This document shows positions 3,557-56,241 of a stretch of 59,413 nucleotides of DNA, in pieces. The stretch covers positions 1 to 59,413 of IMG/VR virus record IMGVR_UViG_3300009034_000039, one strand, 5' to 3'. The notes beneath the pieces are model-generated. The model worked only from the letters and a program-made list of their open reading frames with translations. It was not told the DNA's origin and did no database searches. The stretch is from a virus (taxonomy: Duplodnaviria; Caudoviricetes). The position numbers and the translations under genes are program-made. How positions within the stretch are numbered: position 1 is the stretch's first letter; each line of letters begins with the position of its first letter.

Positions 3557-4420
3557 ATGTCGGAAGTAATTGCTCCGGAGCATGTCTTACTACAATATGA
3601 TGTAGAGACAGCTTACGGCACTACACCTACTAATCCTACTATGAATTGGATAGGAATAGTACAGGATGTCACTCCAGGACTAGACATGAGTAAACTAAAG
3701 GCAGGAGGAATAGGTTCAGCAGATATAGCATATATCAGAAACGGTCTAAGGAAGCCAGAAATGACTATTAAATACATACCACAAAACATTACATTTATGG
3801 ACTATGCAAGATCTATACCGATAGGACTTACTCTTGAGTACTTAGCAGAATATGGAGCTACACCTTCATACGTTAGTCTAGTACATAAAGGTATGCTTAT
3901 AGACAGTATGGAAGTAGTATTGCCTAAAGAAGATTGGGATGTAGTAACGCTTAGACTTATAGGACAAAATGTAACTTATGGCACTGCAGCTATAACTGGT
4001 GAGACAGCAGCTTCAGATCCAGCAACAGCACCTTACTCTTGGTTTGATGCCGAGATAGAGATGGATGTGAATGGTGGACTTTCAGAGATATTAGTGTTCG
4101 GTACTAGTAAGTTCTACATAAGAAATCATTTAAGACCAATCCCGGTAATAAGAGCTACTAATCCTACGCTACTTAAGTATCTACAACGATCTCAGCGGGA
4201 GTTAGGAGGAGAAATACAAGCATACTTTGAAGACAAGACTCACTTAGATGAAGTGCTAGCAAGTACAGATTTTGCTATACGATTTACCCTTACAGGTTCA
4301 ACACCGTTCTATGATTTTACAGGTTGTTATTGGGATAGACATACTCTAACTACTAGAATAAAAGAAATACCGTGTTATGTTAATCTAGCATTTACAGCTA
4401 CAGGCGTTGATATAACTTAA
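3557..4420 (+). CDS. Tail tube (major tail) protein
   Basis: ETAYGTTP N-terminal motif typical of tube proteins; strong SD; followed by the chaperone pair and tape measure. Confidence 0.75.
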   Translation: MSEVIAPEHVLLQYDVETAYGTTPTNPTMNWIGIVQDVTPGLDMSKLKAGGIGSADIAYIRNGLRKPEMTIKYIPQNITFMDYARSIPIGLTLEYLAEYGATPSYVSLVHKGMLIDSMEVVLPKEDWDVVTLRLIGQNVTYGTAAITGETAASDPATAPYSWFDAEIEMDVNGGLSEILVFGTSKFYIRNHLRPIPVIRATNPTLLKYLQRSQRELGGEIQAYFEDKTHLDEVLASTDFAIRFTLTGSTPFYDFTGCYWDRHTLTTRIKEIPCYVNLAFTATGVDIT

Positions 4421-4448
4421 ACTTAACAACTTAAAGGAGATGATGTAG

Positions 4449-4769
4449 ATGGAGATAGTGGATATAATTGGAGAAGAGTACGGGAAGAAATATAAAGGTA
4501 AGTACGTCTATAGGAGTATCTCTTGGGGAAAGCAGAACAGCATAACAGAACAGTGTACTAAGTACATGCCGGGTGGCAAGACTAGAGTAGATATGAAGTT
4601 ACTCCAAGCGAAACTAGTAATGGCTACTCTTAGAGAATCACCGAAAGTAATTAGACTTAGTCACCTTATAGACGAGAGTGATAATGGCTTACCAGTTGCT
4701 TTAGGAAGTAAGATAATCCAACTAGTAGACAAGGTAAATAGTGTTCAATCAGAAGAAGAAAAAAACTAA
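4449..4769 (+). CDS. Tail assembly chaperone (gpG-like)
   Basis: Ends EEEKN with slippery A AAA AAC immediately before the stop; follows the tail tube gene. Confidence 0.8.
   Translation: MEIVDIIGEEYGKKYKGKYVYRSISWGKQNSITEQCTKYMPGGKTRVDMKLLQAKLVMATLRESPKVIRLSHLIDESDNGLPVALGSKIIQLVDKVNSVQSEEEKN
4760..4766 (+). promoter_or_regulatory. -1 programmed ribosomal frameshift heptamer A AAA AAC
   Basis: The -1 frame reads AAA CTA AAG AGA GCT ATG without a stop into ORF 4778-5020. Confidence 0.8.
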
Positions 4770-4777
4770 AGAGAGCT

Positions 4778-5020
4778 ATGATGTTCGGGACACCGCACCC
4801 GGATTTAGCACTTTATAGGTTGGTAAAGGGAGGAGAAGGTGGACTAGGGTTGAGGATAGAAGACTTGTATGATAGACCAGTAGAGATCAGTTTCTTAGGG
4901 TTGACTATCAAAGGAGTTTTAAAAGCTTATCCAAAGCGATTAATAGATAAACTGATAATGGTTCAGCGGATAGTGGACGATAAGATCTTAGAAGAAATGG
5001 GGAAACCTAAACATGCCTAA
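4778..5020 (+). CDS. Tail chaperone frameshift extension (gpT-like)
   Basis: In the -1 frame of the upstream slippery site. Confidence 0.75.
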   Translation: MMFGTPHPDLALYRLVKGGEGGLGLRIEDLYDRPVEISFLGLTIKGVLKAYPKRLIDKLIMVQRIVDDKILEEMGKPKHA

Positions 5021-5402
5021 AGATACTTTTGAAGTTACAGTGACAGTTGAGAATATGCCTGAGTTTATGAAGGCTTTAAGAGAATTTAATCCAAACCTAA
5101 AGAGTGATATGTTCCCGACTATACAGAAGGTAGCTTCTAAGTTAGAAAGAGCTTATAAAGCTGCAGCACCGGTTAAAACTGGAAGACTTCAACGCATGAC
5201 TTACTGTATCGCTATTTTTAATCCATTAGGTCTTGAGATGGGAAGTTTAGCAGAGTACGCATTCTGGACTGAGACTCCTCATGGTACATGGCCGGGTGGG
5301 TGGTTTGCTAATGCTTATAACCGTAATATATGGCGAATAATAGAAGGTTTTCAACGGGCATTAAAAAGAGCAATAAAGAAATATCAAGATAGAGTGAGGT
5401 GA
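5013..5402 (+). CDS. HK97 gp10-like tail completion protein
   Basis: APVKTGRLQR and EYAFWTE motifs. Confidence 0.7.
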   Translation: MPKDTFEVTVTVENMPEFMKALREFNPNLKSDMFPTIQKVASKLERAYKAAAPVKTGRLQRMTYCIAIFNPLGLEMGSLAEYAFWTETPHGTWPGGWFANAYNRNIWRIIEGFQRALKRAIKKYQDRVR

Positions 5403-5938
5403 GTACTATGGCAATGGCAGGTTTAGGAGGAGTTGGAGGAGGAGCACCAGTTCTATATATGGCTATAAGGGCTAGAGACGAGACTAAAGATACTTTCGAT
5501 AGAGTAGGTAAGAAAGCCTCTAAATTAGGTGCTCAAATGATGACTACTGCAAGGCGTGTAGGAGCATTAGCGATGCGCTTCGCTACTTTAGGAAGAGTTA
5601 CAGGGTTACTTTCAGATGAGCAGGCACGATTTATAGGAATAGTAGGTACGGTAATTAGTGTAACAACTATGATGGCTGAAGTAGTAAAAATGGCTACAGC
5701 AGTAGATTGGGCACATGTAACAGCTCTTATATGGAAACATTCTTTACTAACACTAGGAATTGGAGTAGCGATAGCAGCGGCAGCTGCTCTAGCAATATTG
5801 GCTACGGCTACTCAATCAGCAGCAACAGCTCAGAGTAACTATAATAGAGAATTAGAAGCGGGAGCAATGGCACAAGACAGATATGCTTCTAGACAAAGCG
5901 GTATGGTTAGAAGAGGAGAGTTCGAGGAAGTACTCTAG
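5399..5938 (+). CDS. Short tape measure protein
   Basis: IRARDET N-terminal motif, Ala/Gly-rich helical and hydrophobic segments, position between chaperones and hub. Confidence 0.6.
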   Translation: MSTMAMAGLGGVGGGAPVLYMAIRARDETKDTFDRVGKKASKLGAQMMTTARRVGALAMRFATLGRVTGLLSDEQARFIGIVGTVISVTTMMAEVVKMATAVDWAHVTALIWKHSLLTLGIGVAIAAAAALAILATATQSAATAQSNYNRELEAGAMAQDRYASRQSGMVRRGEFEEVL

Positions 5939-5940
5939 GC

Positions 5941-8433
5941 ATGACAGGGTTACTAGGACTACCAAATCTTACAGGTACAATCTTTGGTACAGTAGCTCCA
6001 GCAGCTGCAGATATCTGGGATCTACATGTACACTTAGGAGTGACTAAAGAAGTATCTAGTTTTAGTATAGTGCTAGATAACACTAATGACAAATACGGAG
6101 TCGGAGCTAAAGAAGACTATACTGCTTATGTTGAATATGATCTAGATTCAAAGTATACCGTCACTGCACATCAGATAACAGTAGAAGATTTAACTAGAAA
6201 CGAAGTAGCTTTTATCTATAGAGACTTTGGAGTTAACTACTTTAGTGGAGATTTTGAATTTGATGTAGAAGGACAAGTAAAGGCTACAAGTAATGGTCTA
6301 GCTACTGGTTACTGCTGGGCTTTAACGAACCTTCTACAGAGTTTAAATGTTATTGATGGTGTCTCAGGAGACTTTCTAGCAGTAAGCTTTCAAGAAGAGG
6401 ACGGTGATGTAGAGTGGAGAATATACTTAACTGAGTGTGATGGAGGAACTCTATATGAAGATTACTATATCTGTTCAGCTGATACTACTTACTATTTAAC
6501 TATAAAGCGAGACGAGTCTGTAGGAACATACGGAACACTTTACTGCTATATCTACTCTGATTCGGCTAGAACTACACTAGTCGATACTCTAACTTTAACA
6601 CTGCACACTAGTAAGAAAGACTTTAGATATCTACATGCTGCCCAATCCTATGGTGGTGGCATACATAATGTCTTTGATGGAGTATATGCTAATCTAGGCC
6701 TTATTAGACCTATAAGCCTCTTTGATGCAGCTAGAATAGATCTAGGTAGAGGAACTAGTCATCCACAGATATTTACTGGTAAAGTAGAAAAAATAGAATA
6801 TATAGACAGAGCTGAAGAATATGAGTATTCTAGTATAGTAAAAATAAGTGGTAGATGTAACGGCTGGCAACTATTTGCTAAGAAGTACTCAGGAGATTTA
6901 ATAGCAGACGCGGGATCAGGACTAGCAGGAACAATAGTAGCATACTTAATAGATAACTATACATCTCTCAGCCATGATCGTAGTGGAGAACTAATAGAAG
7001 ATAGTAGCACTACTTATATCAAACTAGTATATGATGAGCCTACAACTATATGGGAGATACTACGCTTTATCTGTGAGACAGCAGACGATAGCGGGGTTAT
7101 AGGCTACGAGATGAGAATTGAATATGATGGGAAGTTTAGATTCTTTGCTAAGAATAGTATAAGTGAAAGTTACGATCTAGATGCAGAAGTACAGTTAGAG
7201 AACTATACTAAACTTATAGAGAAGGTGAAGAATAAGATAACTATTAAGGGTAGAGCAGATAAACCTTTCCCGTTAGCTAGTGATGGTACGCCAGGATATG
7301 ATGGCTGGACAGATTTAGCAGTACCTCAAGTCAAGACTACGGTAAATAAAGATAGCGCTGCAGCTCAACCCGTACTGTGGGTAGCTGATAAAGACGTCTT
7401 TACTCTAGAAAAGGAAATACTAATTGGTTGGACAACTGTGAGAGAAGAAGCAGTTGAGATAGTAGGTAAAGGCGCAAGTAATGGGGATGAGTATCTACAA
7501 GTAACGCCAGACTTAACTTATGAGCATACAGCAGTCCAAGCAGATTTAGTAGTACAAGAACAGACATGGTTTATAGCTAGGGGTGGCGGATCAATAGCAG
7601 CTGAATCTACAATTAAGCGGGTAGGATCTAGATCAGTTAAGACTATACCAGGATTTGCAACTTCAGAGATAGCATTCTGGACTGGAACTGATAATAAAGT
7701 GGATACAACACTCTATCCAGAATTTAAAGTATTAATAAGAGTTACAGGAGCTTCTGCAGAAGTAGGTCTTAGATTATACGATTCTACAGGCAAGGATGCA
7801 TTCCGAGCACTTGGAACTATAGATGATGATGGCTACTTCCACGACTTTACAGTACGATGTGATGAAGACTATGGAGAAGAATGGGATATAGATTCAGGTT
7901 TTGACTGGTCAGATATCTGGGTAATTGGAATAACAGACGAGTTAGGAACAGCTACTATGTATATTGACTATATGTACTTTACAGGTAAAAGATGGGGAGG
8001 AGGAACTGATAACTCTACAGTAGATGGCTTTGCTGAGGATACTACAAGCCAAACAAGTTATGGTATTAGAGAGTACTTTGAAATAAATGAGAACTTCTTA
8101 TCTGAAGCTGAATGCGAAGCTAGAGCCCAAGCCTTACTAGCATTATATTTAGATCCAGAAGTAATAATAAGAATGCATTCTGATAGCATAGACTGGTCTA
8201 CTACAGCTCCTTTAGCGGGGAATAAGACAGGAGTAGATATGACTCCTATAAATGTAGATGCAGATTATAGGATAGACGAGATGGACATTCATGTAAATAT
8301 GAAGGATAAGACACTCGGTGTAGACTATGTATTATCTGCTACGCCTTCTAGACTAGCTGATTATCTATATAGGCAGCAAAGGAAGATTAAAGAACTATCA
8401 CTTACTAGATCTTCTAAGAGAAGAAAGCGATAG
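5941..8433 (+). CDS. Tail tip / baseplate hub protein with inserted lectin-like domains
   Basis: IFTGKVEKI, GKFRFF, NKITIKG and SQTSYGIRE hub-like motifs; inserted EDYTAYVEYD domain. Confidence 0.7.
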   Translation: MTGLLGLPNLTGTIFGTVAPAAADIWDLHVHLGVTKEVSSFSIVLDNTNDKYGVGAKEDYTAYVEYDLDSKYTVTAHQITVEDLTRNEVAFIYRDFGVNYFSGDFEFDVEGQVKATSNGLATGYCWALTNLLQSLNVIDGVSGDFLAVSFQEEDGDVEWRIYLTECDGGTLYEDYYICSADTTYYLTIKRDESVGTYGTLYCYIYSDSARTTLVDTLTLTLHTSKKDFRYLHAAQSYGGGIHNVFDGVYANLGLIRPISLFDAARIDLGRGTSHPQIFTGKVEKIEYIDRAEEYEYSSIVKISGRCNGWQLFAKKYSGDLIADAGSGLAGTIVAYLIDNYTSLSHDRSGELIEDSSTTYIKLVYDEPTTIWEILRFICETADDSGVIGYEMRIEYDGKFRFFAKNSISESYDLDAEVQLENYTKLIEKVKNKITIKGRADKPFPLASDGTPGYDGWTDLAVPQVKTTVNKDSAAAQPVLWVADKDVFTLEKEILIGWTTVREEAVEIVGKGASNGDEYLQVTPDLTYEHTAVQADLVVQEQTWFIARGGGSIAAESTIKRVGSRSVKTIPGFATSEIAFWTGTDNKVDTTLYPEFKVLIRVTGASAEVGLRLYDSTGKDAFRALGTIDDDGYFHDFTVRCDEDYGEEWDIDSGFDWSDIWVIGITDELGTATMYIDYMYFTGKRWGGGTDNSTVDGFAEDTTSQTSYGIREYFEINENFLSEAECEARAQALLALYLDPEVIIRMHSDSIDWSTTAPLAGNKTGVDMTPINVDADYRIDEMDIHVNMKDKTLGVDYVLSATPSRLADYLYRQQRKIKELSLTRSSKRRKR

Positions 8434-11546: not shown

Positions 11547-11646
11547 TGGCTACGTGTTCAAAATGTGGCAGTTTAGTATTCTATAATTGGAAGACTCACC
11601 GTGAACAGTGTAAAGGATGTGGCGCTTCTCCAGAAAGGGGATATCC

Positions 11647-12054
11647 ATGATTAAAACTGCTTGTTTGAAAGACTTAAAGAAACTTCCTAAAGCCTCTATT
11701 AAAGTAATAGTGATGAGACACTTCCCATGGTGGGTTAGAGGCATTAAGAAGAGGTACACTATTAACGCTCCAGAACTTGGTCCTACTCCTGAACTATTAA
11801 AGGCCTTTATTGAAGCTAAGAAGAAACATGGAGTTAAGTTGGCTTGGATCTATACTCACTATGAGTTAACATTCATTAGACATCTTAACCGTAGCGAGAA
11901 AGCTCAGAAGACTATGAAAGAACTTAAGGCTATCTCTATGGAGAAAGATGTTTATCTAATATGTAAAGAACCGACTGATGAGTACTGCCATAGAAGGTTG
12001 CTTAAAGAGTATATTGAAAAGCACATATACGCTGTTAGAGGAACGGGAAAGTAG
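11647..12054 (+). CDS. DUF488 family protein
   Basis: PELGPTPELL and LICKE...CHRRLL motifs; ATG at 11647 after GGGG SD. Confidence 0.75.
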   Translation: MIKTACLKDLKKLPKASIKVIVMRHFPWWVRGIKKRYTINAPELGPTPELLKAFIEAKKKHGVKLAWIYTHYELTFIRHLNRSEKAQKTMKELKAISMEKDVYLICKEPTDEYCHRRLLKEYIEKHIYAVRGTGK

Positions 12055-12268
12055 GTGAATCGGCAAGGTTCTCAAGTAAGGTTAGCGGGAATGGTACACC
12101 CCAGTACACAACAAAATAGCGGGACTTGGACTTCCTTACTAGGAAGTAGTCAGCGCTTCTTGAAGAGTCATATGTCAAATATCAATTTGCCATTGCTCTT
12201 CAAGAAAGAAAAAGAGTGTACCGAACCAGGTTTACCGATCTTAAAGTTCTTCTACTGGACTGATAAAC

Positions 12269-12547
12269 ATGGTTAGTGTCGTATGGTCTGACTCGCCTGG
12301 ATTAAAGGTACCATATGATAAGAGAACTGAGAAGTTAGAATGGCAAGGTTATTATTGTAAAGAATTTACTTTGATAGTATTAAGTGTGAAAAATGTAAGA
12401 AATACTTATGATTATATAGAAGTTTTATTTCATGAATATCTACATCATTGGATTTTTTACTTACCACTACATTGTACACATACTTTAGGTAAAATAATAG
12501 ATAGTATAGATAGACTTATTCATTACAAACGTATAATGAACATCTAA
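12269..12547 (+). CDS. Small HExxH (zincin-like) protein
   Basis: LFHEYLHH. Confidence 0.55.
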   Translation: MVSVVWSDSPGLKVPYDKRTEKLEWQGYYCKEFTLIVLSVKNVRNTYDYIEVLFHEYLHHWIFYLPLHCTHTLGKIIDSIDRLIHYKRIMNI

Positions 12548-24584: not shown

Positions 24585-24766
24585 CAGAAGGTATTCATGA
24601 AGGATCAACTGTCTACGATATATTTTACCAGTGTAAAGCTTGCAGCAAATACGTTACATGTCCAATAGAACCTGGTTCTCCAAGAATGAAGTTAATAATA
24701 GAGAATGGAGATTGTCCTAACTACAACTTTAGCAGCACTACGCGATATAGGAGAGGCTTTAAATAA
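24581..24766 (+). CDS. Cys-rich protein with probable ATA start (not in ORF track)
   Basis: 61-codon open frame (CKAC...CP...CPNY); AGGAGG at 24567-24572; ATAG overlap with the upstream stop. Confidence 0.5.
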   Translation: MAEGIHEGSTVYDIFYQCKACSKYVTCPIEPGSPRMKLIIENGDCPNYNFSSTTRYRRGFK

Positions 24767-25152
24767 ACTTTAAATACTGCTAAATGTAAAGATTATATAG
24801 AGTTAATTCCGGTGAAAGAATGAAGAAAAGAGAATGCGACTATTGTGGCGTAGAAGTTGATGTTCCAGACGATTTAGAAGATTATATACCAGTCTTCTGT
24901 TCAAAGAAATGCAGATATAAAGAAGCTGGTTGGTAAAAATGAATGAATATAAAGATATTGAAGACTTACTTAATAAACTTCTTAAAGAGAAGTATCCAAA
25001 GATAGCTAAGAACTGGGAAGTAAAATTAGTTAAAGTTAGATGGGATGAATAAAAAATGACTAAAGTTACTCTAAAAGACTTTGAGATTAAGTTGAACTTG
25101 ATAAAATTGTATTGAGAATGGTGCAAGGAAGGAATTAACTGGGAGTGTTAAA

Positions 25153-25978: not shown

Positions 25979-26084
25979 AGTGTCCAAACTGTGGAGAAAA
26001 TAGAGAAGCATACTTTATATTTTCTTGTGGTGCATCTACGGCGAAATGTTTAAGTTGTGGTCACGAATTTGAGGTAGAATAAAA

Positions 26085-26303
26085 ATGGCTAAGTGTCCAA
26101 ACTGTGGTTATCCAAGAGTCAAATACAACGTCTCTAGAAGGCAGTATCATAAAGGACATTCTCATGGGAACATAGAACCCAGAAAAGACTTTAACGCTTA
26201 TTGCCCTAAATGCAAGAAGAAATGGATAGATAGTAATGATCCAGACATAGTTCTAAAACACATAATAGAGAAGAATGATGAAATATTAAAGGGATTAGCA
26301 TGA
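26085..26303 (+). CDS. Zn-ribbon protein
   Basis: CPNCG...CPKC. Confidence 0.6.
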   Translation: MAKCPNCGYPRVKYNVSRRQYHKGHSHGNIEPRKDFNAYCPKCKKKWIDSNDPDIVLKHIIEKNDEILKGLA

Positions 26304-26485
26304 CTAGAACTATTACACATCGAACTAAAAATAAGCATAGATTATGGCCTTTATGCCCGGAATGTAAACATGCCATGAGATATATATGTTCTAATACTTA
26401 CATTTGTAGAGATTGCAAGATGAGAGCTACGTGGAACCATAATAGAAAAGAATGGGAGTTCGAAAAGAGTAAAAAACTATTATAA
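26300..26485 (+). CDS. Zn-ribbon protein
   Basis: CPEC...CRDC. Confidence 0.55.
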   Translation: MTRTITHRTKNKHRLWPLCPECKHAMRYICSNTYICRDCKMRATWNHNRKEWEFEKSKKLL

Positions 26486-27097
26486 AGAGGTGAAGAGAAA
26501 AAATGTGTAAACTATGTGCAGAAGCACTAGAAAAACGAAATAAAGGAGAAATAACTAATGAAGAACTAGATTTAGTGATGATTAATTGTGTTAAAAAAGC
26601 AAGAAGAAAAGAATCTGAAGAACTTAAAAATAAAGGAGTATCATTAATTAAGGAGGTGTAATTAATTGAGCACTTCAAATAATGAATTTAAATGTCCAAT
26701 GTGTAAAGGTACTAAACAGATTCCTCAACCAAGCGAAGTAGATTGTACTGCTGTTAAATACGATATATGCCCACTATGTGGTGGAAGTGGTACTCTTAGC
26801 GCAATAGAAATAAAAATTCTTAGTTAAGTGATTAGTAATGAGAGAAAAGATCCTCTTTATAAGAGTTAAAGATCCTGTGGAAGGCCAACCAGTAGCTTAT
26901 CTTAAAATACCTGGAGAATGGTTCGGCAGTATTGAAATACCATACTATTATCTTTATTTTTATCAATAAAGTGTTAGATATGAAGCGTAAAAAAGTAAGT
27001 AAGTTCAAGCTAGAACAAAAGTGTAAGAATCCTAAGTGTAACAAGATGATCTCAATACCTATGGTTTACTGTAGTTCTATATGCTGGAGAGAATGTA

Positions 27098-27286
27098 ATG
27101 GAGAAAGCTGAGTTCTGTTGGAACAGCAGAAGATGGATAGAATTAATGGTTCTAAGACTAGGAGCTCCAGATACGTGTCCTAATCAGAAGATGCAGTTAA
27201 CTAAATGTGAAGAATGTGGGTATTACGAAATGCGAGAACCGACTAAGTATCTTCTTTATATAAGAAAAGTTTTAATGAGTTTCTAA
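27098..27286 (+). CDS. Cys-rich hypothetical protein
   Basis: FCW...CP...CEECGYY. Confidence 0.5.
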   Translation: MEKAEFCWNSRRWIELMVLRLGAPDTCPNQKMQLTKCEECGYYEMREPTKYLLYIRKVLMSF

Positions 27287-27673
27287 TTGTAGAAAGATTT
27301 AAAATGAATAACTATAAATTAGACAGTGTTATAAGATATATTTGTGATGAACATGGTTGAAGTTATAGTTAAAACGAGATCAGGGAAAGTTTATCCAGCA
27401 ACAGACTGCAATCGAAAGCAACTAATTAAAGCTAGAAATAAGATTAATGCCATTATAGATAGAAGACTCTTAAAATAAATTGATGTTAAAAGGTCACTAG
27501 AAGTCACTAATTTAGTCGCTTTTTAATCGTTTTTAGTATACTATACTCTAGTCGAGCTAAAGGCCCTAGTACTCGGCAAGAGGTTTTATAATAGAGTGTA
27601 GGACTCACTAGAGAAGTAGTAGGAAGTATGCGCCGGCCTCCTTATACGGGAGTATTTTGCCGACGGAGAGGAG

Positions 27674-27685
27674 AAAGGTTTATAT
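27674..27685 (+). promoter_or_regulatory. BRE/TATA promoter upstream of structured RNA candidate 1
   Basis: AAAGGTTTATAT about 22 nt before the first helix; no + strand ORF follows. Confidence 0.6.
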
Positions 27686-27706
27686 TCTAATATAGCGCTA
27701 TATCTA

Positions 27707-27975
27707 TTGAGCGCCAAAGAACGCCTGAGAACGGCCAAAGACCTTTCAGGCCTACAGGACCGCAAGGTTGTCTGGGGTCAAATAAGACATTAGAAGTCGG
27801 CGCTTAAGCATACTCCTGTCCCCATAAGGGATTAACAGGTTGAGAGCAAAGCGCAGATCTGATCGAATAAGATCGCTCCTTTCGGATGATAGATCTGTAG
27901 CCGCTCTCGTAATTCATTAACAACCACCACAGGCCAGTGGAGCTGCGTAAAGCTGGATGGTAGCTGAGGCTGCAG
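27707..27975 (+). ncRNA. Candidate structured non-coding RNA 1, unknown class
   Basis: GC-enriched; helices 27707-15/27799-807, 27723-30/27744-51, GACC-GCAA-GGTT tetraloop, 27842-47/27903-08, 27853-60/27891-98 and others; G-U pairs favour the + strand. Confidence 0.65.
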
Positions 27976-28304
27976 CGTAGCGCGACCTGATATACTCTTA
28001 TACACTTCTTCTCTACAAGTCTAGTACCTGGAATAGACGTCAACATCCTTTATAGACACGCTCATATACAGTAGCGAGTCATGGCGCGACGTCAGCATAC
28101 TACTTTACTGTCTCTATAATGGGAGGTCACTATTTTGCCGAGCACTCCTTATCACTACTATTAAATAATAAATCTTAAGAACTATTTGATGATGATGATA
28201 GTTGTAAAGAAAACATTTAGATATTATATAAATAGAATCATTGTGTTAAATGATAGAAAAGTTTTAATAGAGCCATCGGTTACTATCTATAGGTGAGAAT
28301 GTAA

Positions 28305-28505
28305 ATGGGTTATAAATTAAAAATAAAGTACAATAATTCTGAAGGGGAAGGAGAAATCATACTAACAGATAGTAACAAACTTAAAGCCACAGGTATTGTA
28401 TTAAACAATGCTAATGCAGGACCAGCATTAATAGACTTGATTAGAAAACTTACATCATGGATGAGTAAGAATAATATACACTCTCTGGAGATAGAAGAAG
28501 AGTAA
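28305..28505 (+). CDS. Small hypothetical protein between the two RNA candidates
   Basis: Own TATA (28257-28269) and AGGTG SD. Confidence 0.65.
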   Translation: MGYKLKIKYNNSEGEGEIILTDSNKLKATGIVLNNANAGPALIDLIRKLTSWMSKNNIHSLEIEEE

Positions 28506-28544
28506 CGTTTAAATAATTGTTTGAACATAGTTAAGTATGTCCCT

Positions 28545-28940
28545 GCTTCATAGTACTCTTCAATGCGTCTATGGAGACTTTGAGCCACAAGGGCTACACG
28601 AAGCTTAAGTGATGCGGCAATGCAGCGTACAAGACCAAGCCGTATAGTTTAATGAATATATACATCCTGAGAAACTGGCCGGAGTCGTGACCGGTTATGG
28701 CTCAGGCGGGATGGGAAGACAGAGGGAAATCAGAATACCTTTGTGTGTATGACGCCCTATCCTGATTAAAATATAATGGATCGTCAGGATGTTGCTGGGA
28801 TGATAACATTCCTGGTTAATGATTAACACTTAACTTAACCTAATTAGGTGTTAATTGGCGTGGGGATCTTTGGTCTCCTTTGGCAAAGAGACGGGATGCA
28901 CTACATACTTCACGTAGCCAAGTATGTTTGGTGGCATCCA
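28545..28940 (+). ncRNA. Candidate structured non-coding RNA 2, unknown class
   Basis: TATA at 28504-28515; long helices 28546-53/28569-76, 28612-18/28639-45, 28666-71/28701-06, 28707-15/28755-64, 28784-94/28804-15, 28822-33/28844-55, 28894-910/28920-39. Confidence 0.7.
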
Positions 28941-29004
28941 TCAATATGAACTAGAAAGCTTTAATAGTTCTAGAGACATTCATAGATTATACGGAGGTGA
29001 AACT

Positions 29005-29559
29005 ATGGAATTAGAGAGATTTAAGGAAACTCTGCTTGAGTTCCTCAGTGATGTGACTACAATATCAGAGAAGGCAAAGACAACATTCATACATGATGAT
29101 GGCTCCTGGGTACCTAATCAGGCGCCTAATGATTATGTAGTTCTGACTGACTTCTTATTGGTTAAAGTACAAACATCTACTAAGATACCGGATAGACCAA
29201 TTCCTACTAGAGGAAAAGATGAAGAGACGACTCCAACAAATGAAGTACAAGGAGGAGAGATATATCATTGTATAGTTAAATTTGCATTCTTTACGGAGAA
29301 GAATGTTTACTATATAAGTGCAACATGGCTAAACAACACTGCTCAGTATTTAGGTGCTATGTGTAATAGCCGTACCTCTAGGCCTGGAGAGAATTGGGTA
29401 AGAGGTCATGACTTACCAGACGGCTACTTCTGTCGCGAGACATGGGAAAGGATTAAAAATCGCTTTGTAAAAGGCGAGATGAAAGCCTTGTCTAAATACA
29501 TCACTAGCGGTCGGTATATGTATCCTCAAGCAGACATAGAGAAAGAAGTATGCGGATAA
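29005..29559 (+). CDS. Conserved hypothetical viral protein
   Basis: TATA at 28955-28966 and GGAGGTG SD place the start at 29005; YLG...RPGENWxRGxDLPDG motif. Confidence 0.65.
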   Translation: MELERFKETLLEFLSDVTTISEKAKTTFIHDDGSWVPNQAPNDYVVLTDFLLVKVQTSTKIPDRPIPTRGKDEETTPTNEVQGGEIYHCIVKFAFFTEKNVYYISATWLNNTAQYLGAMCNSRTSRPGENWVRGHDLPDGYFCRETWERIKNRFVKGEMKALSKYITSGRYMYPQADIEKEVCG

Positions 29560-29579
29560 TATAAGAATAGACCAAATTT

Positions 29580-29607
29580 GGACTAATGATAGTCCATACC
29601 TCTTTTT
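29580..29607 (+). terminator. Hairpin plus T-tract
   Basis: GGACTA-ATGA-TAGTCC followed by TCTTTTT. Confidence 0.45.
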
Positions 29608-29699
29608 ATATAGATTTAATGTAGTATGCCATAAAATAGGTAACTACTTTAAAGCTTGTAAAAGAAAGATTTAAATAACAAGGAGTACTTATCTTAATC

Positions 29700-29957
29700 G
29701 TGTTGAAATTGCCTGAAAGATTAGATATTAATCCAGATGTGGATCATCCAGATAACGATCCACCAACTCTATCTTGGTATGAAGCGGTTACACCAAAGAC
29801 ATGTAAAATTTGTAATGGGTCTTTAGGACTTATAGAGCATTATGATCATGATGGCGGATGGTTAGTTGACGGCTTTGAAAAGAAGCAGTGGCTTTACCGT
29901 ACCTGTTTTAAGTGTGGATATCAGTGGGCTATTTGGAAGCTGGGCGTTCCGAGGTAA
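29700..29957 (+). CDS. Zn-ribbon protein
   Basis: CKIC...CFKCG; TATA at 29665-29677. Confidence 0.6.
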   Translation: MLKLPERLDINPDVDHPDNDPPTLSWYEAVTPKTCKICNGSLGLIEHYDHDGGWLVDGFEKKQWLYRTCFKCGYQWAIWKLGVPR

Positions 29958-29999
29958 GGTTTAAATAATACCGGGTACCTAAGATAAATAGGTGTTAAA

Positions 30000-30248
30000 T
30001 TGAAAGTAATTTGCAGCTCTTGTAACGTTTTAATGCAACTGGATAAGATAGGTCTAGTACTCTATAATCTTACAGTTGATGATTGTGTTGCATTCATTAT
30101 TAAAGCTGATCAATATAAATGTCTATGTTGTAACTCTTCAGTTATAACTGATATGGGTATACCATTCTACTTTCCACACTCTTTATCAATGGAAGAGTTT
30201 AAAGAGAAATTTAAGAAGAACTTATGTTTAAACTATAGTTGGTTGTAA
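30000..30248 (+). CDS. Zn-ribbon protein
   Basis: CSSC...ADQYKCLCC; TATA at 29956-29967. Confidence 0.55.
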   Translation: MKVICSSCNVLMQLDKIGLVLYNLTVDDCVAFIIKADQYKCLCCNSSVITDMGIPFYFPHSLSMEEFKEKFKKNLCLNYSWL

Positions 30249-30545
30249 AATGGGTTATACAAATATAACTGAAACAATGAGGCTTAACCGCTATAACCTG
30301 AAGAGGCTAACGGAGGAAGAACTAGATCATCTACAGAATTCGGAACATCTATCAGCAAAGTTTAAATTAGCTTTATTACGCTTTAGAAGTGTGAAAGTAA
30401 GATGACTAAAATAAAATGTCCTCAGACACACTGTAAAGATAATAAAGAAGGATTCTGTCAGGCAAAAGAGATAGAATTAGAACAAGAACCCTATCACGCT
30501 CCTGAATGTATGAATATGTATTGTCCTTGGAAGAAAGATTAAAAC

Positions 30546-32120
30546 ATGTTCAGAATAAGAGGAACAGATAGACGTAAAGAGTTCGTAAAGGGTACTCTAG
30601 TAGAAGCTCAACAGATCCGAGGTAAGAAGGTAGAGTACTTTAGTCCGGAGACAGGTTTTATCTTACTTAAAAGGATAATGCCTATTAACTATACTAAGAA
30701 AGTCATACAGAGAGCTAGATCAGCAGCTAAGCTTAGTTTAGAGACTCCTCTCTCATTAAGAGAGTTCTATTATACTTTGAGAGTTACACCAGATCTAGTT
30801 AAAGCTTTCGATACTGGTAATCCAGACGCTATCTATCCTATGGTATTGAGAGCTATATGTGACGTTGAGATCTTATGTGATATAGGCCGAGAGTACTTTA
30901 CAGTGGGAAACCTTAGTAAAGGCTTTATCTACTATTACCACTCTGAGAAGTTTAGTGACAAGGACAGAATGATTGCATTCACTGAGAACATAGCTAGATC
31001 AGCTCTAGCTGACGAAGAACTAGAAGCATGTGAAAACATTATAGTAATCGAGAAGAACGCTGCAGCTACTAGGTTAGTTGATCTAGGTATGTCAGAGCTA
31101 ACTAACAGCGTTATAGTGACAGTTGGTGGAAACTTTAACCGAGCAATATGGGCTCTAACTGACAGGTTTAAAGACTCTAAGAATATCATATACTTTTGTG
31201 ACGCTGATGCCTACGGTGTAGACATGCTTAGGACTATAGCTGTAGGGACTAAGAATAGTAGACATTTAACATTTAAGTTTCCTCCAGCAAAGAACCCTAA
31301 CATATACTTAGCTGGTCTATATCCGTCTGTCGGTGAGAGTTTAGGACTACCTAACGACGTCCAGCAGAAGAGGCCTTTAGCTAACCCATTCGTACAGAGA
31401 AGGATTAACTTCTTACGTAGCCACGGGCTACTAAACCAACAGGATTACGATACATGGATGAGAGATAAGACCTACGAGCTAGAGTCTCTTTCTACAGCTT
31501 ATAAGAGTAGGAAGGACGGTAAACCTATAGGCTTAGCTATTCACCTGATAGAATACATGAGGCTCTTTGAGATACCAGTTAAGCCTCCTCTTCCACCAGA
31601 TGAAGAGTTGGAAAAAGAGTTTAGGAAGAAAGCTTACGAAGAGCTTAAGAGTGAAATTGAAGAGAAGCTTCAGTATCCTAAGGTAGTATGGGATCTATAC
31701 TGGCACTTTGAACAGGCTAAGAAGGATTTAATAGAAGAGATCTTTGAAGACCTTAAACCAGAATACGATGACGCTTTAGACGAAGTGACAGCTAAAGAGA
31801 TTAAGTTCCATATCTATAAGCAGTTTGAAGAGGATCCAGAACGGGCTACATACGATCTTAAAGCGATAGCTCATAAGCTTAAAGTACAGTTTGACATTAA
31901 ACCAGAATGGAAAGCAGATGAACTTACAGAGAGAGTTGAAGGCGCACTGGCAGACTATAAAGCAGAGGTTGTCGAGTTCGTTAAAGAAGTTGTCTTTGCT
32001 CCAATACATAACGAGACTACTATCATAGACACCTACGACTTGATACTTCAGAAGCTGGGTGCGGACCCGGAGGATTGTAGGAAAGTAAGAGAAGCTCTAG
32101 AGAAGAGGTTTAAGGAATGA
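30546..32120 (+). CDS. Topoisomerase VI subunit A / Spo11-like protein with long C-terminal extension
   Basis: WHD LREFYY (catalytic Tyr), TOPRIM VIEK and DADAYG, YELESL. Confidence 0.85.
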   Translation: MFRIRGTDRRKEFVKGTLVEAQQIRGKKVEYFSPETGFILLKRIMPINYTKKVIQRARSAAKLSLETPLSLREFYYTLRVTPDLVKAFDTGNPDAIYPMVLRAICDVEILCDIGREYFTVGNLSKGFIYYYHSEKFSDKDRMIAFTENIARSALADEELEACENIIVIEKNAAATRLVDLGMSELTNSVIVTVGGNFNRAIWALTDRFKDSKNIIYFCDADAYGVDMLRTIAVGTKNSRHLTFKFPPAKNPNIYLAGLYPSVGESLGLPNDVQQKRPLANPFVQRRINFLRSHGLLNQQDYDTWMRDKTYELESLSTAYKSRKDGKPIGLAIHLIEYMRLFEIPVKPPLPPDEELEKEFRKKAYEELKSEIEEKLQYPKVVWDLYWHFEQAKKDLIEEIFEDLKPEYDDALDEVTAKEIKFHIYKQFEEDPERATYDLKAIAHKLKVQFDIKPEWKADELTERVEGALADYKAEVVEFVKEVVFAPIHNETTIIDTYDLILQKLGADPEDCRKVREALEKRFKE

Positions 32121-51352: not shown

Positions 51353-51556
51353 ATGGTAGCTAGACAGACAAAGAAAAATGGTTGTAAAGTTACTTATTGT
51401 GACTACCATATCTGTGGAAGTATGAGCTGTATAGGTCGCGAGGAAGATAATATAACCATTCTTAAATATCCAAATGCTTGTAATAGAGGAATGGCTTGGA
51501 TGGCTGATGCACTAGCTGGTAAGAAGGTTAGAAGTTTTTACCATAATAAAGTCTAG
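51353..51556 (+). CDS. Cys-rich hypothetical protein
   Basis: TATA at 51310-51321. Confidence 0.45.
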   Translation: MVARQTKKNGCKVTYCDYHICGSMSCIGREEDNITILKYPNACNRGMAWMADALAGKKVRSFYHNKV

Positions 51557-52090
51557 AATCTTTTTAATAACTAAGTCCCATCTATCAAACTCTTTAGCAG
51601 TTATATGTAGACTTTCTATACCGAATGAAGCAAACCACTTATCCTTTCTAGCGTCTGCCTTCTTAGTCATCTTATGGAAAGGACCATCTGCTTCTATTCT
51701 CTTCTGGGTAAAGGGATTATAGAAGTCTATCCTGCATCTACCACTTTTAGGACCAGGGAAAGGACAGTTATGAATAAAGTCATTAGCAACATCTAGGTAT
51801 ATTAGAAACATCCAAGTTAACTCTTCTAGAGAAGACCAGTGGTTATAGTGCCATCTACGTGAACAGGAAGAAGAGAACTTAATAAAGGCTACTTCTCTAG
51901 GGGAAGTACGTGGATACTTCCTATTAGTGGCTCTGCAGAAAGCTCTATAGCCACCGAACACTTCCATAAGCCTCTCAAAGAGTTCAGGCCTCTTCTTCTT
52001 AACCGTCTTATAATGAGGAGTACCTCTTTTAAGTTCTTCTCTAAACTCAGTCTCAAAAGCTATGTTTAGATCTTTACGAATAAAGCTCAA
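51512..52090 (-). CDS. DUF559/Vsr-like PD-(D/E)XK endonuclease
   Basis: RIDFY...IEADGPFH...DARKDKW...G; TTG start at 52090 preferred. Confidence 0.75.
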   Translation of the reverse strand: MSFIRKDLNIAFETEFREELKRGTPHYKTVKKKRPELFERLMEVFGGYRAFCRATNRKYPRTSPREVAFIKFSSSCSRRWHYNHWSSLEELTWMFLIYLDVANDFIHNCPFPGPKSGRCRIDFYNPFTQKRIEADGPFHKMTKKADARKDKWFASFGIESLHITAKEFDRWDLVIKKILDFIMVKTSNLLTS

Positions 52091-52226
52091 TGATCTTGTT
52101 GAGCATTTTGATGAAGGCTGGTTTCTTTGTACTTTCTCCAAGTAACTCAACTGCCCGCCAGAACTTACCATACTCAGTTGGTGTTAGTGTAAATTGTAAA
52201 CTTTTAGTCTTAGACCGTTTGTTCAA
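52074..52226 (-). CDS. 50-aa RHH-like protein (not in ORF track)
   Basis: MNKRSKTKSLQFTLTPTEYGKFW...; TTG start overlapping the upstream gene. Confidence 0.5.
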   Translation of the reverse strand: MNKRSKTKSLQFTLTPTEYGKFWRAVELLGESTKKPAFIKMLNKIIELYS

Positions 52227-52624: not shown

Positions 52625-52690
52625 TTTATAAAGATTACTAGAGGACTGATGGGTTAAAAGATTAATAATTTAATTAGCTAGTTTAAATAA
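52625..52690. promoter_or_regulatory. Divergent TATA promoters
   Basis: Minus strand AATCTTTATAAA (52625-52636, identical to 33672-33683); plus strand GTTTAAATAA (52681-52690). Confidence 0.6.
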
Positions 52691-52724: not shown

Positions 52725-54446
52725 ATGGTAGACTATTTGGGAACCAATGAGGGTATACTCAAACACCCTCTGGTTCAATCACTGCTGAACCAAGCAAAGA
52801 TAAATAAGATCAAGCTAGATTATATTCTAGATTTTTCTATAGTCAAGAAGTTCAAGACTAAGGATCGTTTTGTTATAGCTGGTTACGCTTCAGTAGAGGT
52901 TATAGATACTCAGAATGAACTCATACCTATAGAGACTCTTAAGGAGTCTTTCGATAGGTTCATGAAAACAGATGAATTTGCTCTTAGTTCTATTATGCAT
53001 AGTAATATTCCTATAGCTAAGATTTTAAAGGAATATACTGACTCTGAAGGTACTAAGTGGGTTAGTCACGTTAATGAAGATGGCTTGTTTATAGTTGCTG
53101 AGGTAAGGCAAGACATAAAGAAGGGAGAGCAGACCTGTGATCTAATTGAGAAAGGAGTTCTAACAGGTTTCTCTATAGGCGGAGAAGCGCTCGCTACTTC
53201 TACAGTATGTGAAGGACCTACTGGATCTAGTTGTTACACGAAAATTGATAAACTTGATATCCATGAGATAGCTATTGTGGATAGGCCAGCTAATCAACCT
53301 TCAGTATTTACTATAGTTAAAAGGTATGAACCTATGTTAAAGGTTTGGGAAGAGACAGAAGAGAATATTAGAAGTGGACATGGAGATTTAGCTTCTTTCG
53401 ACAAAGACAGCATGCGGACAATTACAATAGATCAAGATAAAGGAATTAAAGCTATAGTTGGTTGCCCAAAGGGTAACTATGAAGGCGGTAAGTGTAAAGT
53501 TGGAGTTGAAGTTCAATCATTTCTATTTGATAAAGAAAAATGGACAATGGAAAGAGCGAAGAAATGGTTTAAGAAGCATAAAGATGCTAAGAAGGTCTAT
53601 ACTGTGAAGAAGGGGATAACAGTAGAGGAGATTAAGGCTAAACTAATAGAAGCCTTTAAACGAAGAGATACTCTACAGAAGAAGATAAATGATTTTTGGA
53701 GTAGCCAACCGAAGCCTTCAAGTATTATAGAAGTAGAGAGAAGTGTTTCTATGGTAAATGCTGAGATCAGTGCTCTAGAGAAGGCTTTAGGTGAGCTTAT
53801 TATTAAAGGTTCAGAAGATCCTAATAAGGTCAGGACTGGAGAGCAACCTGAAGGAGACGAGGAACTAGAGAAAGTTGACTCTTTACTTGAACTCGGTAAA
53901 GTTATGAAAGGCCCTGTAGATAGATTAGGTTTTAAACTATTATTATTACGGGTAAAAGCTCTTAAAGAAGAAGAGAAACCTACGATTGGTGATAAAAAAA
54001 TTCCTTATAATAAAATAGGGAATATGAAAAAAGCTGAATTTAATGGCCAAGAAGGTAAATGGGTTACAATTCGAGGTAAGAAAGTATTTATTCCTAGTGG
54101 TTATGGTGAATTAGATAAATATGAATTATCTGGTAAAGAGAGGTTTCTTGCCGAGCACGTAGATAAACATGGAACTAGATATTATGCTCGACAGTCCGTA
54201 TATGGTGATCATTATGTTCTTTTAGGTCGAGGTAAGGATCAAGAGTATGCTGGATTTATATCAGTTCAACGTAAAACTAAAAAGTTTAAAACGAAAGAAG
54301 AAGCAGTGACTTATGCTAAGAAACATTTTCCAAAAGGAAATAAAAAGAAGTTAAAGTTTTATAGTGCTTGTCAAGTATTAAAGTTACGGGCGGAAGCCTT
54401 AACCAAATTGAAGAGAGTCGGTGGCGTTGGCTCTTCGAGGGTTTAG
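52725..54446 (+). CDS. HK97-type prohead protease with extra C-terminal domains
   Basis: IAGYAS...DTQNE, MH, GFSIGG, EIAIVDRPAN. Confidence 0.9.
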   Translation: MVDYLGTNEGILKHPLVQSLLNQAKINKIKLDYILDFSIVKKFKTKDRFVIAGYASVEVIDTQNELIPIETLKESFDRFMKTDEFALSSIMHSNIPIAKILKEYTDSEGTKWVSHVNEDGLFIVAEVRQDIKKGEQTCDLIEKGVLTGFSIGGEALATSTVCEGPTGSSCYTKIDKLDIHEIAIVDRPANQPSVFTIVKRYEPMLKVWEETEENIRSGHGDLASFDKDSMRTITIDQDKGIKAIVGCPKGNYEGGKCKVGVEVQSFLFDKEKWTMERAKKWFKKHKDAKKVYTVKKGITVEEIKAKLIEAFKRRDTLQKKINDFWSSQPKPSSIIEVERSVSMVNAEISALEKALGELIIKGSEDPNKVRTGEQPEGDEELEKVDSLLELGKVMKGPVDRLGFKLLLLRVKALKEEEKPTIGDKKIPYNKIGNMKKAEFNGQEGKWVTIRGKKVFIPSGYGELDKYELSGKERFLAEHVDKHGTRYYARQSVYGDHYVLLGRGKDQEYAGFISVQRKTKKFKTKEEAVTYAKKHFPKGNKKKLKFYSACQVLKLRAEALTKLKRVGGVGSSRV

Positions 54447-54475
54447 AATCGCTAACGAAAAGAAAAGTGAGAAAA

Positions 54476-55093
54476 ATGACAAAAGAAAAGGTTACAAAAC
54501 CTTGCCCCGAAGAAGAGAAGAAGAAAGGCAATATAGTTATAAATGCAGACGTGAAGCCGGAAGACGAAGAAGAAAAGACTAAAGCTGAAGTTATACCTCA
54601 GTGGGGTCTAGACCTCAAAGCGTCTCTTGAACGTGTTGTAGATCTTATAGAGCGCAAGCAAGATCCAGAAGAGGAAAAAGAACCTCCTAAGGATGAGGAA
54701 GAAAAGAAACAGGACGACGAGGAGAAAGTACCTCCAAAGGACGAGGAAGAGAAGCAAGACGATGAAGAGAAAGAACCACCTAAAGATGAAGAGAAGCAAG
54801 ATGACGAAGAGAAGCCAGAAGATGAGGAAGAAAAGAATAAAGTTCTTACTGACATGGTTAAGACTGAAGTTGCACGCGTTGTTGGGGATATTGGTGCTGT
54901 TGAATTAGCTAAGAGAGGTAAGGCTGGAGATGGGAAGCCTAAAGCTCTTGACTTGTTCACCATGCATAAGATACCATTCAGCGCTATCCATAAAGCATCT
55001 GGTTTTCCAGATGTTCCGGAGTACGACTTAACTCAAGTGCCAGGTTGGAAAGGACAGTCTTCACTGCTTATCAGGACTAGGAAGAAGGATTAG
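54476..55093 (+). CDS. Scaffolding protein
   Basis: Acidic repeats; lies between protease and capsid genes; ATG at 54476 preferred. Confidence 0.7.
   Translation: MTKEKVTKPCPEEEKKKGNIVINADVKPEDEEEKTKAEVIPQWGLDLKASLERVVDLIERKQDPEEEKEPPKDEEEKKQDDEEKVPPKDEEEKQDDEEKEPPKDEEKQDDEEKPEDEEEKNKVLTDMVKTEVARVVGDIGAVELAKRGKAGDGKPKALDLFTMHKIPFSAIHKASGFPDVPEYDLTQVPGWKGQSSLLIRTRKKD
54655..54835 (+). repeat. Four degenerate KQDDEEKEPPKDEE coding repeats
   Basis: Visible in both DNA and translation. Confidence 0.85.
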
Positions 55094-55095
55094 AG

Positions 55096-56241
55096 ATGCC
55101 AGTAAAAAGATTTAATTCGATGGATGCTCTATTTGCGCATTACTACGGTGATATGCGACTTGTTCGTAAAGAGATAACGAGACAGACACCAGGTCAAGGC
55201 ACTTGGTGGGAGCCACTGTACGGCGCTAAAGTCTGGAGTCAAGTGAACCTTGAAGCTAATGGTTTCGCTATAGTTCCTAAGGAACCATGGCGTAGTTCAG
55301 GTTTCAGGTATCTATTGACCACAGGCGACACTCTGACAGTAGCGGGTTCAGCAACGCATACTATAGCCGAATCTGGTGCAATCTCAGGAACGCTATCAGA
55401 TCCGACTTTCTTGCAGTTGAACCTTACGCCTAAGACTATTGTTCAAGGCCTAAATGCTTCTGAAGTAGCGGAATTTCTGGGTAAAGTTGACGACGCTGTT
55501 GACATTGTACCTTATCTGAGAGAACTCAAAGGTAAAGTGCACGCGAGGATGTTGAACATCCTAGTCATAGGTGAAGTTGACACTGTTGACTCTGCGGGAT
55601 TTACGCCACTTGACAGGATTGTGTCAAGCTATGCAGAAGTTAACGGCAATGGATACATAGACGCTAACGACTCAGACGTGTTCGGCCAAGACAGAGACTC
55701 GGCAGCTAATGACTCGATAGACGCTCAAGTTTCAGAGAACGACGGTACTCTTCGAGACCTTACACTAAGCGTTATTGATAACATCCAGGACAACATCTGG
55801 GACCACGACGGACATCCTAAAGTGATCTTTACAAGGAACAACACGCTTGTTGCTTGGCAAGCACTTCTAGAGTCCGAGAGGAGATTCATGGACTCAGCGA
55901 GAGTAGTTCCTACTTTCGGTGGAGTTCGTGGAGTTGCTCCGGGAGTTGAAGCTGGTTTCATGGTAGCGACATACCTCGGTGTGCCTATCATAACTAGCAT
56001 AGACGTTCCTTACTCAGATGCTCCGAACTCTGGAGGTACATCAGGCTTAGGTAAGATATACTTCTTAGATACGGACTATCTCCGGCTAAGAGTAATGAAG
56101 CCTACCACGTACTTCGAGACTGAGAGAAATGTAGGGTTCGCCTACATGGACGATCTAACGATCAAAGGCTACTACGAGACCATAGCAGAGATGCTATGTA
56201 CATCTCTTAACAGGCAAGGCAAAGTAACGGACATCCAGTAG
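55096..56241 (+). CDS. Major capsid protein (HK97 fold)
   Basis: 381 aa after protease/scaffold; YGAKVW, PKxPW, YLGVPII, IYFLDT motifs. Confidence 0.88.
   Translation: MPVKRFNSMDALFAHYYGDMRLVRKEITRQTPGQGTWWEPLYGAKVWSQVNLEANGFAIVPKEPWRSSGFRYLLTTGDTLTVAGSATHTIAESGAISGTLSDPTFLQLNLTPKTIVQGLNASEVAEFLGKVDDAVDIVPYLRELKGKVHARMLNILVIGEVDTVDSAGFTPLDRIVSSYAEVNGNGYIDANDSDVFGQDRDSAANDSIDAQVSENDGTLRDLTLSVIDNIQDNIWDHDGHPKVIFTRNNTLVAWQALLESERRFMDSARVVPTFGGVRGVAPGVEAGFMVATYLGVPIITSIDVPYSDAPNSGGTSGLGKIYFLDTDYLRLRVMKPTTYFETERNVGFAYMDDLTIKGYYETIAEMLCTSLNRQGKVTDIQ

Follow-up and report, generated by a model that had tools for sequence, protein, structure and literature searches.

A GC-rich, ORF-free island behind a recurrent promoter-like box as a candidate structured leader RNA in an archaeal-type tailed virus

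In the genome of a tailed virus, which we treat as archaeal-type on the basis of its gene content, a promoter-like box is followed by a gene-free island of distinct composition, called here 'RNA 2' (28535-28950, plus strand), and both the promoter and the island are real. The reading that we prefer, to which we give a probability of roughly 40%, is that 'RNA 2' is an untranslated, structured segment of a plus strand transcript that would be launched at 28507, and that it would form the leader of the mRNA of a gene for a 184-aa protein located immediately downstream. In more general terms, a non-coding plus strand transcript from 28507 is plausible because the promoter is recurrent and is not followed by an ORF led by a ribosome site, the island is GC-rich and free of ORFs, and a three-way junction of 131 nt within it (28662-28792) is strand-specific. 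This junction is the only part of 'RNA 2' with an RNA-specific signal and is a reasonable RNA candidate; 'RNA 2' as a whole is best regarded as an orphan, single-sequence ncRNA candidate. For the unit that begins at 28507, we infer transcription, the start point, read-through, and a regulatory role.

The window, i.e., the whole stretch of DNA that was analyzed, corresponds to a complete virus record, 59,413 bases (59.4 kb) long and bounded by direct terminal repeats. All of its ORFs of at least 150 aa but one are on the plus strand, and 85.5% of this strand lies within ORFs of at least 60 aa. Pfam searches identified virion genes (portal, large terminase, prohead protease, tail tube, and a weak match to a major capsid protein), genes for replication and repair of archaeal type, namely a family-B DNA polymerase, a RadA/Rad51 with a HhH domain, a Mre11-like phosphoesterase, an ERCC4 nuclease with HhH, and a Top6A/Spo11-like protein, and genes involved in nucleotide metabolism (UDG, thymidylate synthase, and dCTP deaminase). 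The 40 larger ORFs scanned against Pfam, a set that leaves out some smaller ORFs, include neither an integrase nor a reverse transcriptase domain, the latter being the mark of retrons, DGRs, and other RT-associated ncRNAs; no tRNA or tmRNA was found. Among the relatives that carry the Top6A-like gene, one is found in a MAG labeled Thermoplasmata and another in a MAG labeled bacterium, so that binning is an unreliable indicator of the host.

Some other regions of this genome have features of their own. The only sizeable minus-strand gene (51512-52171) encodes a DUF559 (Vsr-like endonuclease) domain and could represent an insertion of the selfish or homing type, lying just upstream of a further copy of the promoter box at 52681. 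The ORF at 54368-55093, which has the prohead protease on one side and the capsid gene on the other, resembles a scaffold protein and contains a 45-48-nt tandem repeat (54656-54825) encoding an acidic lysine-rich repeat. Directly upstream of the islands discussed below, the segment 25153-27478 holds about 12 very small ORFs (35-78 aa), many of them with paired CxxC motifs and zinc-ribbon-like.

The promoter-like box GTTTAAATAAT is located on the plus strand at 28507-28517, just after the stop codon of a gene for a 66-aa protein, with its TATA core at 28508-28515. The first-pass annotation of this locus had proposed a TATA box ahead of the RNA at 28504; the box itself stands, at the corrected position. 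The same 11-mer occurs exactly at 28507, 29959, and 52681, always on the plus strand, against 0.12 occurrences expected, and three or more copies appeared in 0 of 100 shuffles. The copies at 29959 and 52681 are placed 41 and 44 nt, respectively, ahead of the ribosome-site-led starts at 30000 and 52725, and the motif also precedes a 75-aa gene in a relative (G002/L002), being the sole BLAST match of the locus in that genome. Judged by its letters, the site at 28507 therefore qualifies as a putative promoter of the archaeal TATA/BRE type, i.e., an A/T-rich box that recurs at a fixed distance upstream.

The genes on the two sides of 'RNA 2' have boxes of their own, which differ in type from GTTTAAATAAT. 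The box AAAGTTTTAATAG (28258-28270, plus strand) is found 47 nt upstream of the 66-aa start, and AAAGCTTTAATAG (28955-28967, plus strand) 50 nt upstream of the 184-aa start; these TATA-like 13-mers are nearly identical, AAAGYTTTAATAG, and similarly spaced. In all, eight genes, including these two, have a TATA-like box 40-54 nt upstream of a ribosome-site-led start. The set of TATA patterns used is loose: it matched this AT-rich genome at 46 places, of which no more than 12 are within 70 nt of a ribosome-site-led start, and for this reason the evidential weight is placed on the exact 11-mer GTTTAAATAAT. A bacterial sigma-70-like site at 28749-28777 was set aside in view of the archaeal gene content and of the number of promoter-like sites, which was 11 versus 9.4 expected.

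Runs of at least five T occur at 27520 and 27530, and then none is found until 29603, where, after the 184-aa gene, a hairpin with a T5 run (29579-29607, plus strand) resembles a terminator; the folding window at 29551, which covers this hairpin, has a z of -5.8. A spacing of about 2 kb between T5 runs is common in this genome, and larger gaps occur. Given that no oligo-T separates the promoter at 28507 from 29603, the transcript most likely runs into the 184-aa gene. Archaeal TATA boxes are centered about 26 nt upstream of the transcription start, and the transcript would here start about 25 nt after the TATA core. The segment 28535-28950 would then be its untranslated, partly structured part, and, with the transcript most likely reading on through the 184-aa gene, 'RNA 2' would constitute a leader of roughly 470 nt. 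For any transcript reading through from the 66-aa gene, 'RNA 2' would in turn serve as the 3' tail. Most simply, the locus may be pictured as a single accessory unit whose promoters are nested and whose transcripts share an end at 29603, and in which the 184-aa gene would also have its own proximal promoter.

The 66-aa ORF (28305-28505, plus strand), with its ribosome site GGTGAG at 28292-28297, is a genuine gene, and the earlier description of it as separately promoted agrees with the box at 28258-28270. A word-index search with its product retrieved only the query itself; a full HMMER pass yielded eight homologous proteins of 63-81 aa, with 34-44% identity and end-to-end alignment. Two long matches to the same query turned out to be RCC1/beta-propeller repeat proteins and were dropped as spurious, and a four-sequence alignment of the family found no locus in IMG/VR. 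The 184-aa gene (29005-29559, plus strand) has the ribosome site GGAGGTG at 28993-28999, and its family comprises 22 homologs besides itself, the best of which is 82% identical and encoded on a 3.2-kb contig. In the alignment, all but three rows begin at MELERF or only a few residues away from it, and most of the homologs have their own ribosome site; P0012 and P0003/P0004 are extended at the N-terminus, and P0019 is truncated. With the profile of this family, IMG/VR gave only distant C-terminal matches (22 loci), and 401 genomes of one archaeal phylum gave one weak match. Neither protein has a match in Pfam, PHROGs, or the PDB sequences. Their AF2 models (pLDDT of 68 for the 66-aa and 78 for the 184-aa protein) have best fold matches at background level (Z of 5.8 and 8.0, respectively), and neither has an RNA- or nucleic-acid-binding fold above background. 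Both represent real, uncharacterized families.

Regarding composition, 'RNA 2' has a GC content of 46-47% in the windows starting at 28550-28700 and at 28850, with a dip to 36-40% in those starting at 28750-28800, and its flanks are at 25-33%. After 28507, about 415 nt (to about 28950) are free of ribosome-site-led ORFs; the helices had been said to end before the next promoter, and indeed this ORF-free stretch is followed by the box at 28955-28967. No plus strand ORF of at least 30 aa with a ribosome site is present in 28535-28950, and the sole ATG ORF noticed on inspecting the sequence has 23 codons (28537-28608); it would start at about the expected start of the transcript, as placed by the TATA distance of about 26 nt that is usual in archaea. 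'RNA 2' and a second island, 'RNA 1' (27550-28150, plus strand, ORF-free, 44-54% GC), are the only long ORF-free stretches of the genome with raised GC. The remaining gaps of at least 250 nt are low in GC, and one of them, 24585-25152, seems on inspection to contain short ORFs.

The plus strand minimum free energy structure of 28535-28950 contains helices of 11, 12, 12, 12, 8+7, 9, 13, and 17 bp, totaling 128 bp, 19 of which are G-U, and it thus bears out the earlier description of helices of 8-17 bp with G-U pairs. At the level of the whole island, folding is modestly above chance and both strands are alike: for 28506-28966, z is -2.81 on the plus strand (0 of 100 shuffles) and -2.65 on the minus strand (1 of 100), and for 28535-28950 it is -2.32 on either strand. 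The GC content of stems versus loops is the same as in shuffled sequences. The three-way junction at 28662-28792 is the only strand-specific structure of 'RNA 2', with -47.9 kcal/mol on the plus strand (z of -4.09, inflated by the fact that the boundaries were picked after folding; 0 of 200 shuffles) and -30.6 kcal/mol on the minus strand (z of -1.10; 31 of 200). The probabilities of its helices range from 0.69 to 0.99, and its stability is confined to the plus strand because it depends on G-U pairs. The 5' part of the island, 28546-28652, is at background (z of -1.08 on the plus and +0.32 on the minus strand). Three hairpins at the 3' side (28794-28816, 28821-28856, and 28894-28939) are palindromic and can form on either strand; taken together (28794-28939), they fold better on the minus strand (z of -4.37) than on the plus strand (z of -2.35), which fits DNA or either RNA strand and is uninformative about RNA. 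As for the suspicion that the stems might act only as DNA palindromes, these hairpins would suit that case equally well, whereas the junction is strand-specific.

The folding of the islands can be compared with that of the genome through a plus strand scan in 847 windows, each of 150 nt, with 15-20 shuffles per window and a step of 50 nt in 1-20350 and 26000-31000 and of 100 nt elsewhere, which gave a mean z of -0.18 (sd 1.22). The six windows of 'RNA 2' have z values of +0.3, -1.3, -3.1, -1.8, -3.5, and -2.1, and they fold more stably than the 831 windows that belong to neither island (Mann-Whitney p 0.001), 2.2% of which also reach a z of -3 or lower. Seven windows are below the best 'RNA 2' window (12101, 29551, 55801, 55201, 58001, 59201, and 36301), down to a minimum z of -6.8. 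This strongest signal of the scan belongs to window 12101, and the region 12104-12221, between the ORFs 11617-12054 and 12269-12547, holds two near-perfect hairpins with a GUACAC/GUGUAC closing stem and has a z of -5.1 on both strands. The lowest folding energies of the genome are found in 55200-55950, a part of the putative major capsid gene where GC rises to 50% and where windows 55201 and 55801 have a z of about -5.

The interpretation of 'RNA 2' as a leader is favored by the recurrence of the promoter, the absence of ORFs, the distinct GC content, the strand-specific junction, and the lack of a gene remnant. Against it count the proximal promoter of the 184-aa gene, which makes a long leader unnecessary for expression, the fact that no homolog was found in the collections searched, and the whole-island z, which is equal on the two strands. 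Within such a leader, the junction would be the likeliest functional core, as a cis element for stability, processing, or protein binding. In a long transcript, 28634-28651 is predicted to pair with 28983-28999, which would cover the 184-aa ribosome site; masking by the leader was rejected as chance-level, since 89 of 1000 shuffled leaders gave a duplex of no lower stability and the gene is only 10th among 43.

Instead of a leader, 'RNA 2' could be a non-functional spacer, i.e., what is left of DNA that was acquired from a relative or host richer in GC or that has decayed, placed between promoters and incidentally transcribed in a hypervariable accessory region, and we hold this to be rather doubtful. 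Relatives of the virus, collected through the Top6A-like gene, consist of one IMG/VR record, 18 metagenome loci, and two MAG contigs, and in them the zone that separates the polymerase module from the Top6A-like gene is hypervariable and wholly different from one relative to another, as would be expected of a spacer. Neither blastn nor nhmmer found nucleotide similarity to 27300-29000 in 19 related loci, and the nearest complete relative, G002, whose Top6A-like protein is 62% identical, has no RNA domain and no member of the 66-aa or the 184-aa family. In L002, the non-coding stretch 4560-5110 folds at background (z of -1.1), and the 75-aa ORF beside it is unrelated to the 66-aa protein. A spacer would also be in line with the GC content of the island, which is close to the overall GC of related viruses (0.40-0.47), with the absence of conserved sequence in the relatives searched, and with a global folding z that is modest and strand-symmetric. 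As a separate observation, the Top6A-like match is split in three of the loci into two pieces (residues 1-230 and 226-522) about 60 nt apart, namely in L010 (4069-5725), L011 (2382-4036), and L021 (477-2133), which suggests an insertion or a frame change there.

Counting against a spacer, no trace of a protein-coding remnant was detected. Comparison of the island with 2570 translated ORFs of relatives gave nothing significant, and the 10 tested of the 19 stop-free frames of at least 35 aa had no Pfam match at E of 0.01 or lower. No second copy of the island is present in the virus, nor were homologs found in the phage and plasmid collections; BLAST against the 401 genomes of the archaeal phylum gave three short AT-rich matches, all outside the GC-rich island (28167-28212, 28333-28367, and 28495-28527). 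The island is thus single-copy in the virus and has no copy in those 401 genomes, which bears on the multiple copies expected of a MITE; a 16-nt direct repeat that flanks it (28525 and 28912) is 81% identical, which is at chance level in a region with 17 repeat families. The tight packing of the rest of the genome, together with the strand-specific stability of the junction, also speaks against a spacer.

It is unlikely, in our estimation, that 'RNA 2' is a structured RNA of about 400 nt that stands alone and acts in trans; it would start from 28507, end near 28940-28955 by processing or at an unrecognized terminator, and act perhaps with the 66-aa and/or the 184-aa protein, in line with the ncRNA or RNP of the first-pass annotation. 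Its promoter is its own and of a strong type, unlike the AAAGYTTTAATAG boxes of the flanking genes, and the 184-aa gene, having its own promoter, does not require the island as a leader; the junction inside is strand-specific, and the proteins on both sides come from real, uncharacterized families. On the other hand, no oligo-T or other recognizable terminator is found before 29603, G002 lacks the RNA and both protein families, and the models of both proteins fail to reveal a nucleic-acid-binding fold above background. In addition, no homolog of the RNA was found: none of the 4227 Rfam 15 families, including GOLLD, ROOL, group I/II introns, RNase P, SRP, and C/D sRNAs, reached its gathering score anywhere in the window, and at E up to 10 the segment 27400-29100 gave five sub-threshold matches (16-23 bits versus thresholds of 39-56). 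An exact 18-mer from the junction had 0 matches in IMG/VR, and a single-sequence covariance model of the junction (R1) found only itself in 44 sources (428,895 bases), with no match in G001 or G002.

The comparison with 'RNA 1' is likewise unfavorable to a stand-alone RNA, as this island is indistinguishable from background structure: over ten sliding windows it is not more structured than the genome (p 0.46). As a whole it has a z of -1.57 to -2.43 on the plus strand and of -2.91 on the minus strand, and within it only 27813-27912, a palindromic segment, is significantly structured, on both strands (z of -3.31 and -4.31). 'RNA 1' also shows a 12-bp long-range closing stem (27568-27579 with 28135-28146) and an exact 11-mer, TATTTTGCCGA, present at 27653 and 28131.

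Palindromes of this kind raise the question of an element that acts as DNA, i.e., palindromes bound by proteins, an origin of replication, or a site for recombination, placed beside the replication genes, which we regard as quite unlikely. The segments 28794-28939 and 27813-27912 are near-perfect palindromes that fold as well or better on the minus strand, and an AT-rich stretch (28150-28300, 19-25% GC) separates the two islands. In relatives, this zone of the genome also includes large non-coding regions that contain repeats, with CGTCATTAGTGACCC-like motifs in L006 and a GTATG cluster in L004. The L006 region (4717-6610 of a 60.7-kb contig) is intergenic, divergent, and large, and with its repeats of CGTCATTAGTGACCCTCTAA-like boxes it looks like an operator or origin array. 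The L004 stretch (3713-4580, about 860 nt), which, like 1017-1338 of L003, is non-coding and occupies the same genome zone, contains 10 of the 13 GTATG of its locus, all on the plus strand, within 680 nt and in repeated CTGTATG-like units, which may be iterons or repeated promoter/initiator elements. The islands of the window show a mild enrichment, with four GTATG in about 1 kb versus 1.4 per kb. Against an element of this type, 28257-28966 contains no iterons or tandem repeats, the cumulative GC skew has no turning point, the central junction needs G-U pairs and is unstable as the complementary strand, and no integrase was detected among the 40 larger ORFs scanned.

Very improbable, lastly, is a self-contained accessory module of archaeal tailed viruses spanning 27550-29603 (island 1, the 66-aa gene, island 2, and the 184-aa gene), in which a new RNA with its core in the junction would work with one or both of the small proteins, for example as an anti-defense decoy or scaffold; a TATA-like box is apparent before each part (before island 1 by sequence inspection only) and one terminator closes the whole. 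The first-pass proposal of a dedicated RNA/small protein/RNA system acting as a decoy, scaffold, or ribozyme is unsupported: G002 lacks the RNA and both protein families, 'RNA 1' is at background, and no homolog of the RNA was found.

Returning to the leader reading, 'RNA 2' can be set against systems already described. It resembles long structured 5' leaders and cis-regulatory RNAs known from the mRNAs of bacteria and archaea in having a promoter, hundreds of folded untranslated nucleotides, and a gene led by a ribosome site, with no terminator in between; it differs from the known leaders in that it matches no ligand-binding or leader family, site masking is at chance level, and the gene has a proximal promoter. 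Klein, Misulovin and Eddy reportedly showed in 2002 that GC-rich islands mark RNA genes in AT-rich archaeal genomes, with a screen said to have been validated on the cellular tRNA, rRNA, and sRNA genes of hyperthermophiles. Like those islands, 'RNA 2' has a GC content more than 10 points above an AT-rich coding background and lacks ORFs, whereas it is viral and its rise in GC is moderate (to 46-49%). GOLLD and ROOL are described, in the accounts cited, as large structured ncRNAs in or near phage genomes, bacterial and defined by deep alignments with covariation (PMC12286853, PMC5737381). 'RNA 2' resembles them in its length of several hundred nucleotides, its multiple helices, its viral location, the lack of an assigned function, and a definition that requires no protein partner, and it is unlike them in that it is a single sequence of about 415 nt, has no Rfam match, and is far less striking in stability.

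Some further classes were considered and rejected. A self-splicing intron with an internal ORF is at odds with the 184-aa homologs, most of which start near MELERF with their own ribosome site, and there is neither a match to an intron model nor a match of the 66-aa protein to a homing-endonuclease or maturase family. A Type III toxin-antitoxin system, in which a repeat RNA is paired with a toxin of about 170 aa, was discarded because 28257-28966 holds no tandem repeat and the 184-aa protein has no Pfam match. CRISPR-like direct repeats (24-37 nt with spacers), as in a mini-array or a solitary unit, were searched for and none was found.

To our knowledge, the ncRNAs of archaeal viruses are almost unexplored, and a non-exhaustive search of the literature found no description of a large structured ncRNA from one of them. 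For now, the main value of this work lies in mapping the promoters of the locus with good support and in defining a precise candidate target of 131 nt. If the RNA-protein module were true, it would be the first large structured ncRNA described for an archaeal virus. If 'RNA 2' is a functional RNA, it would add an RNA class without Rfam relatives, and it would open a way to study how an accessory gene is controlled, or the host countered, by viruses of this kind.
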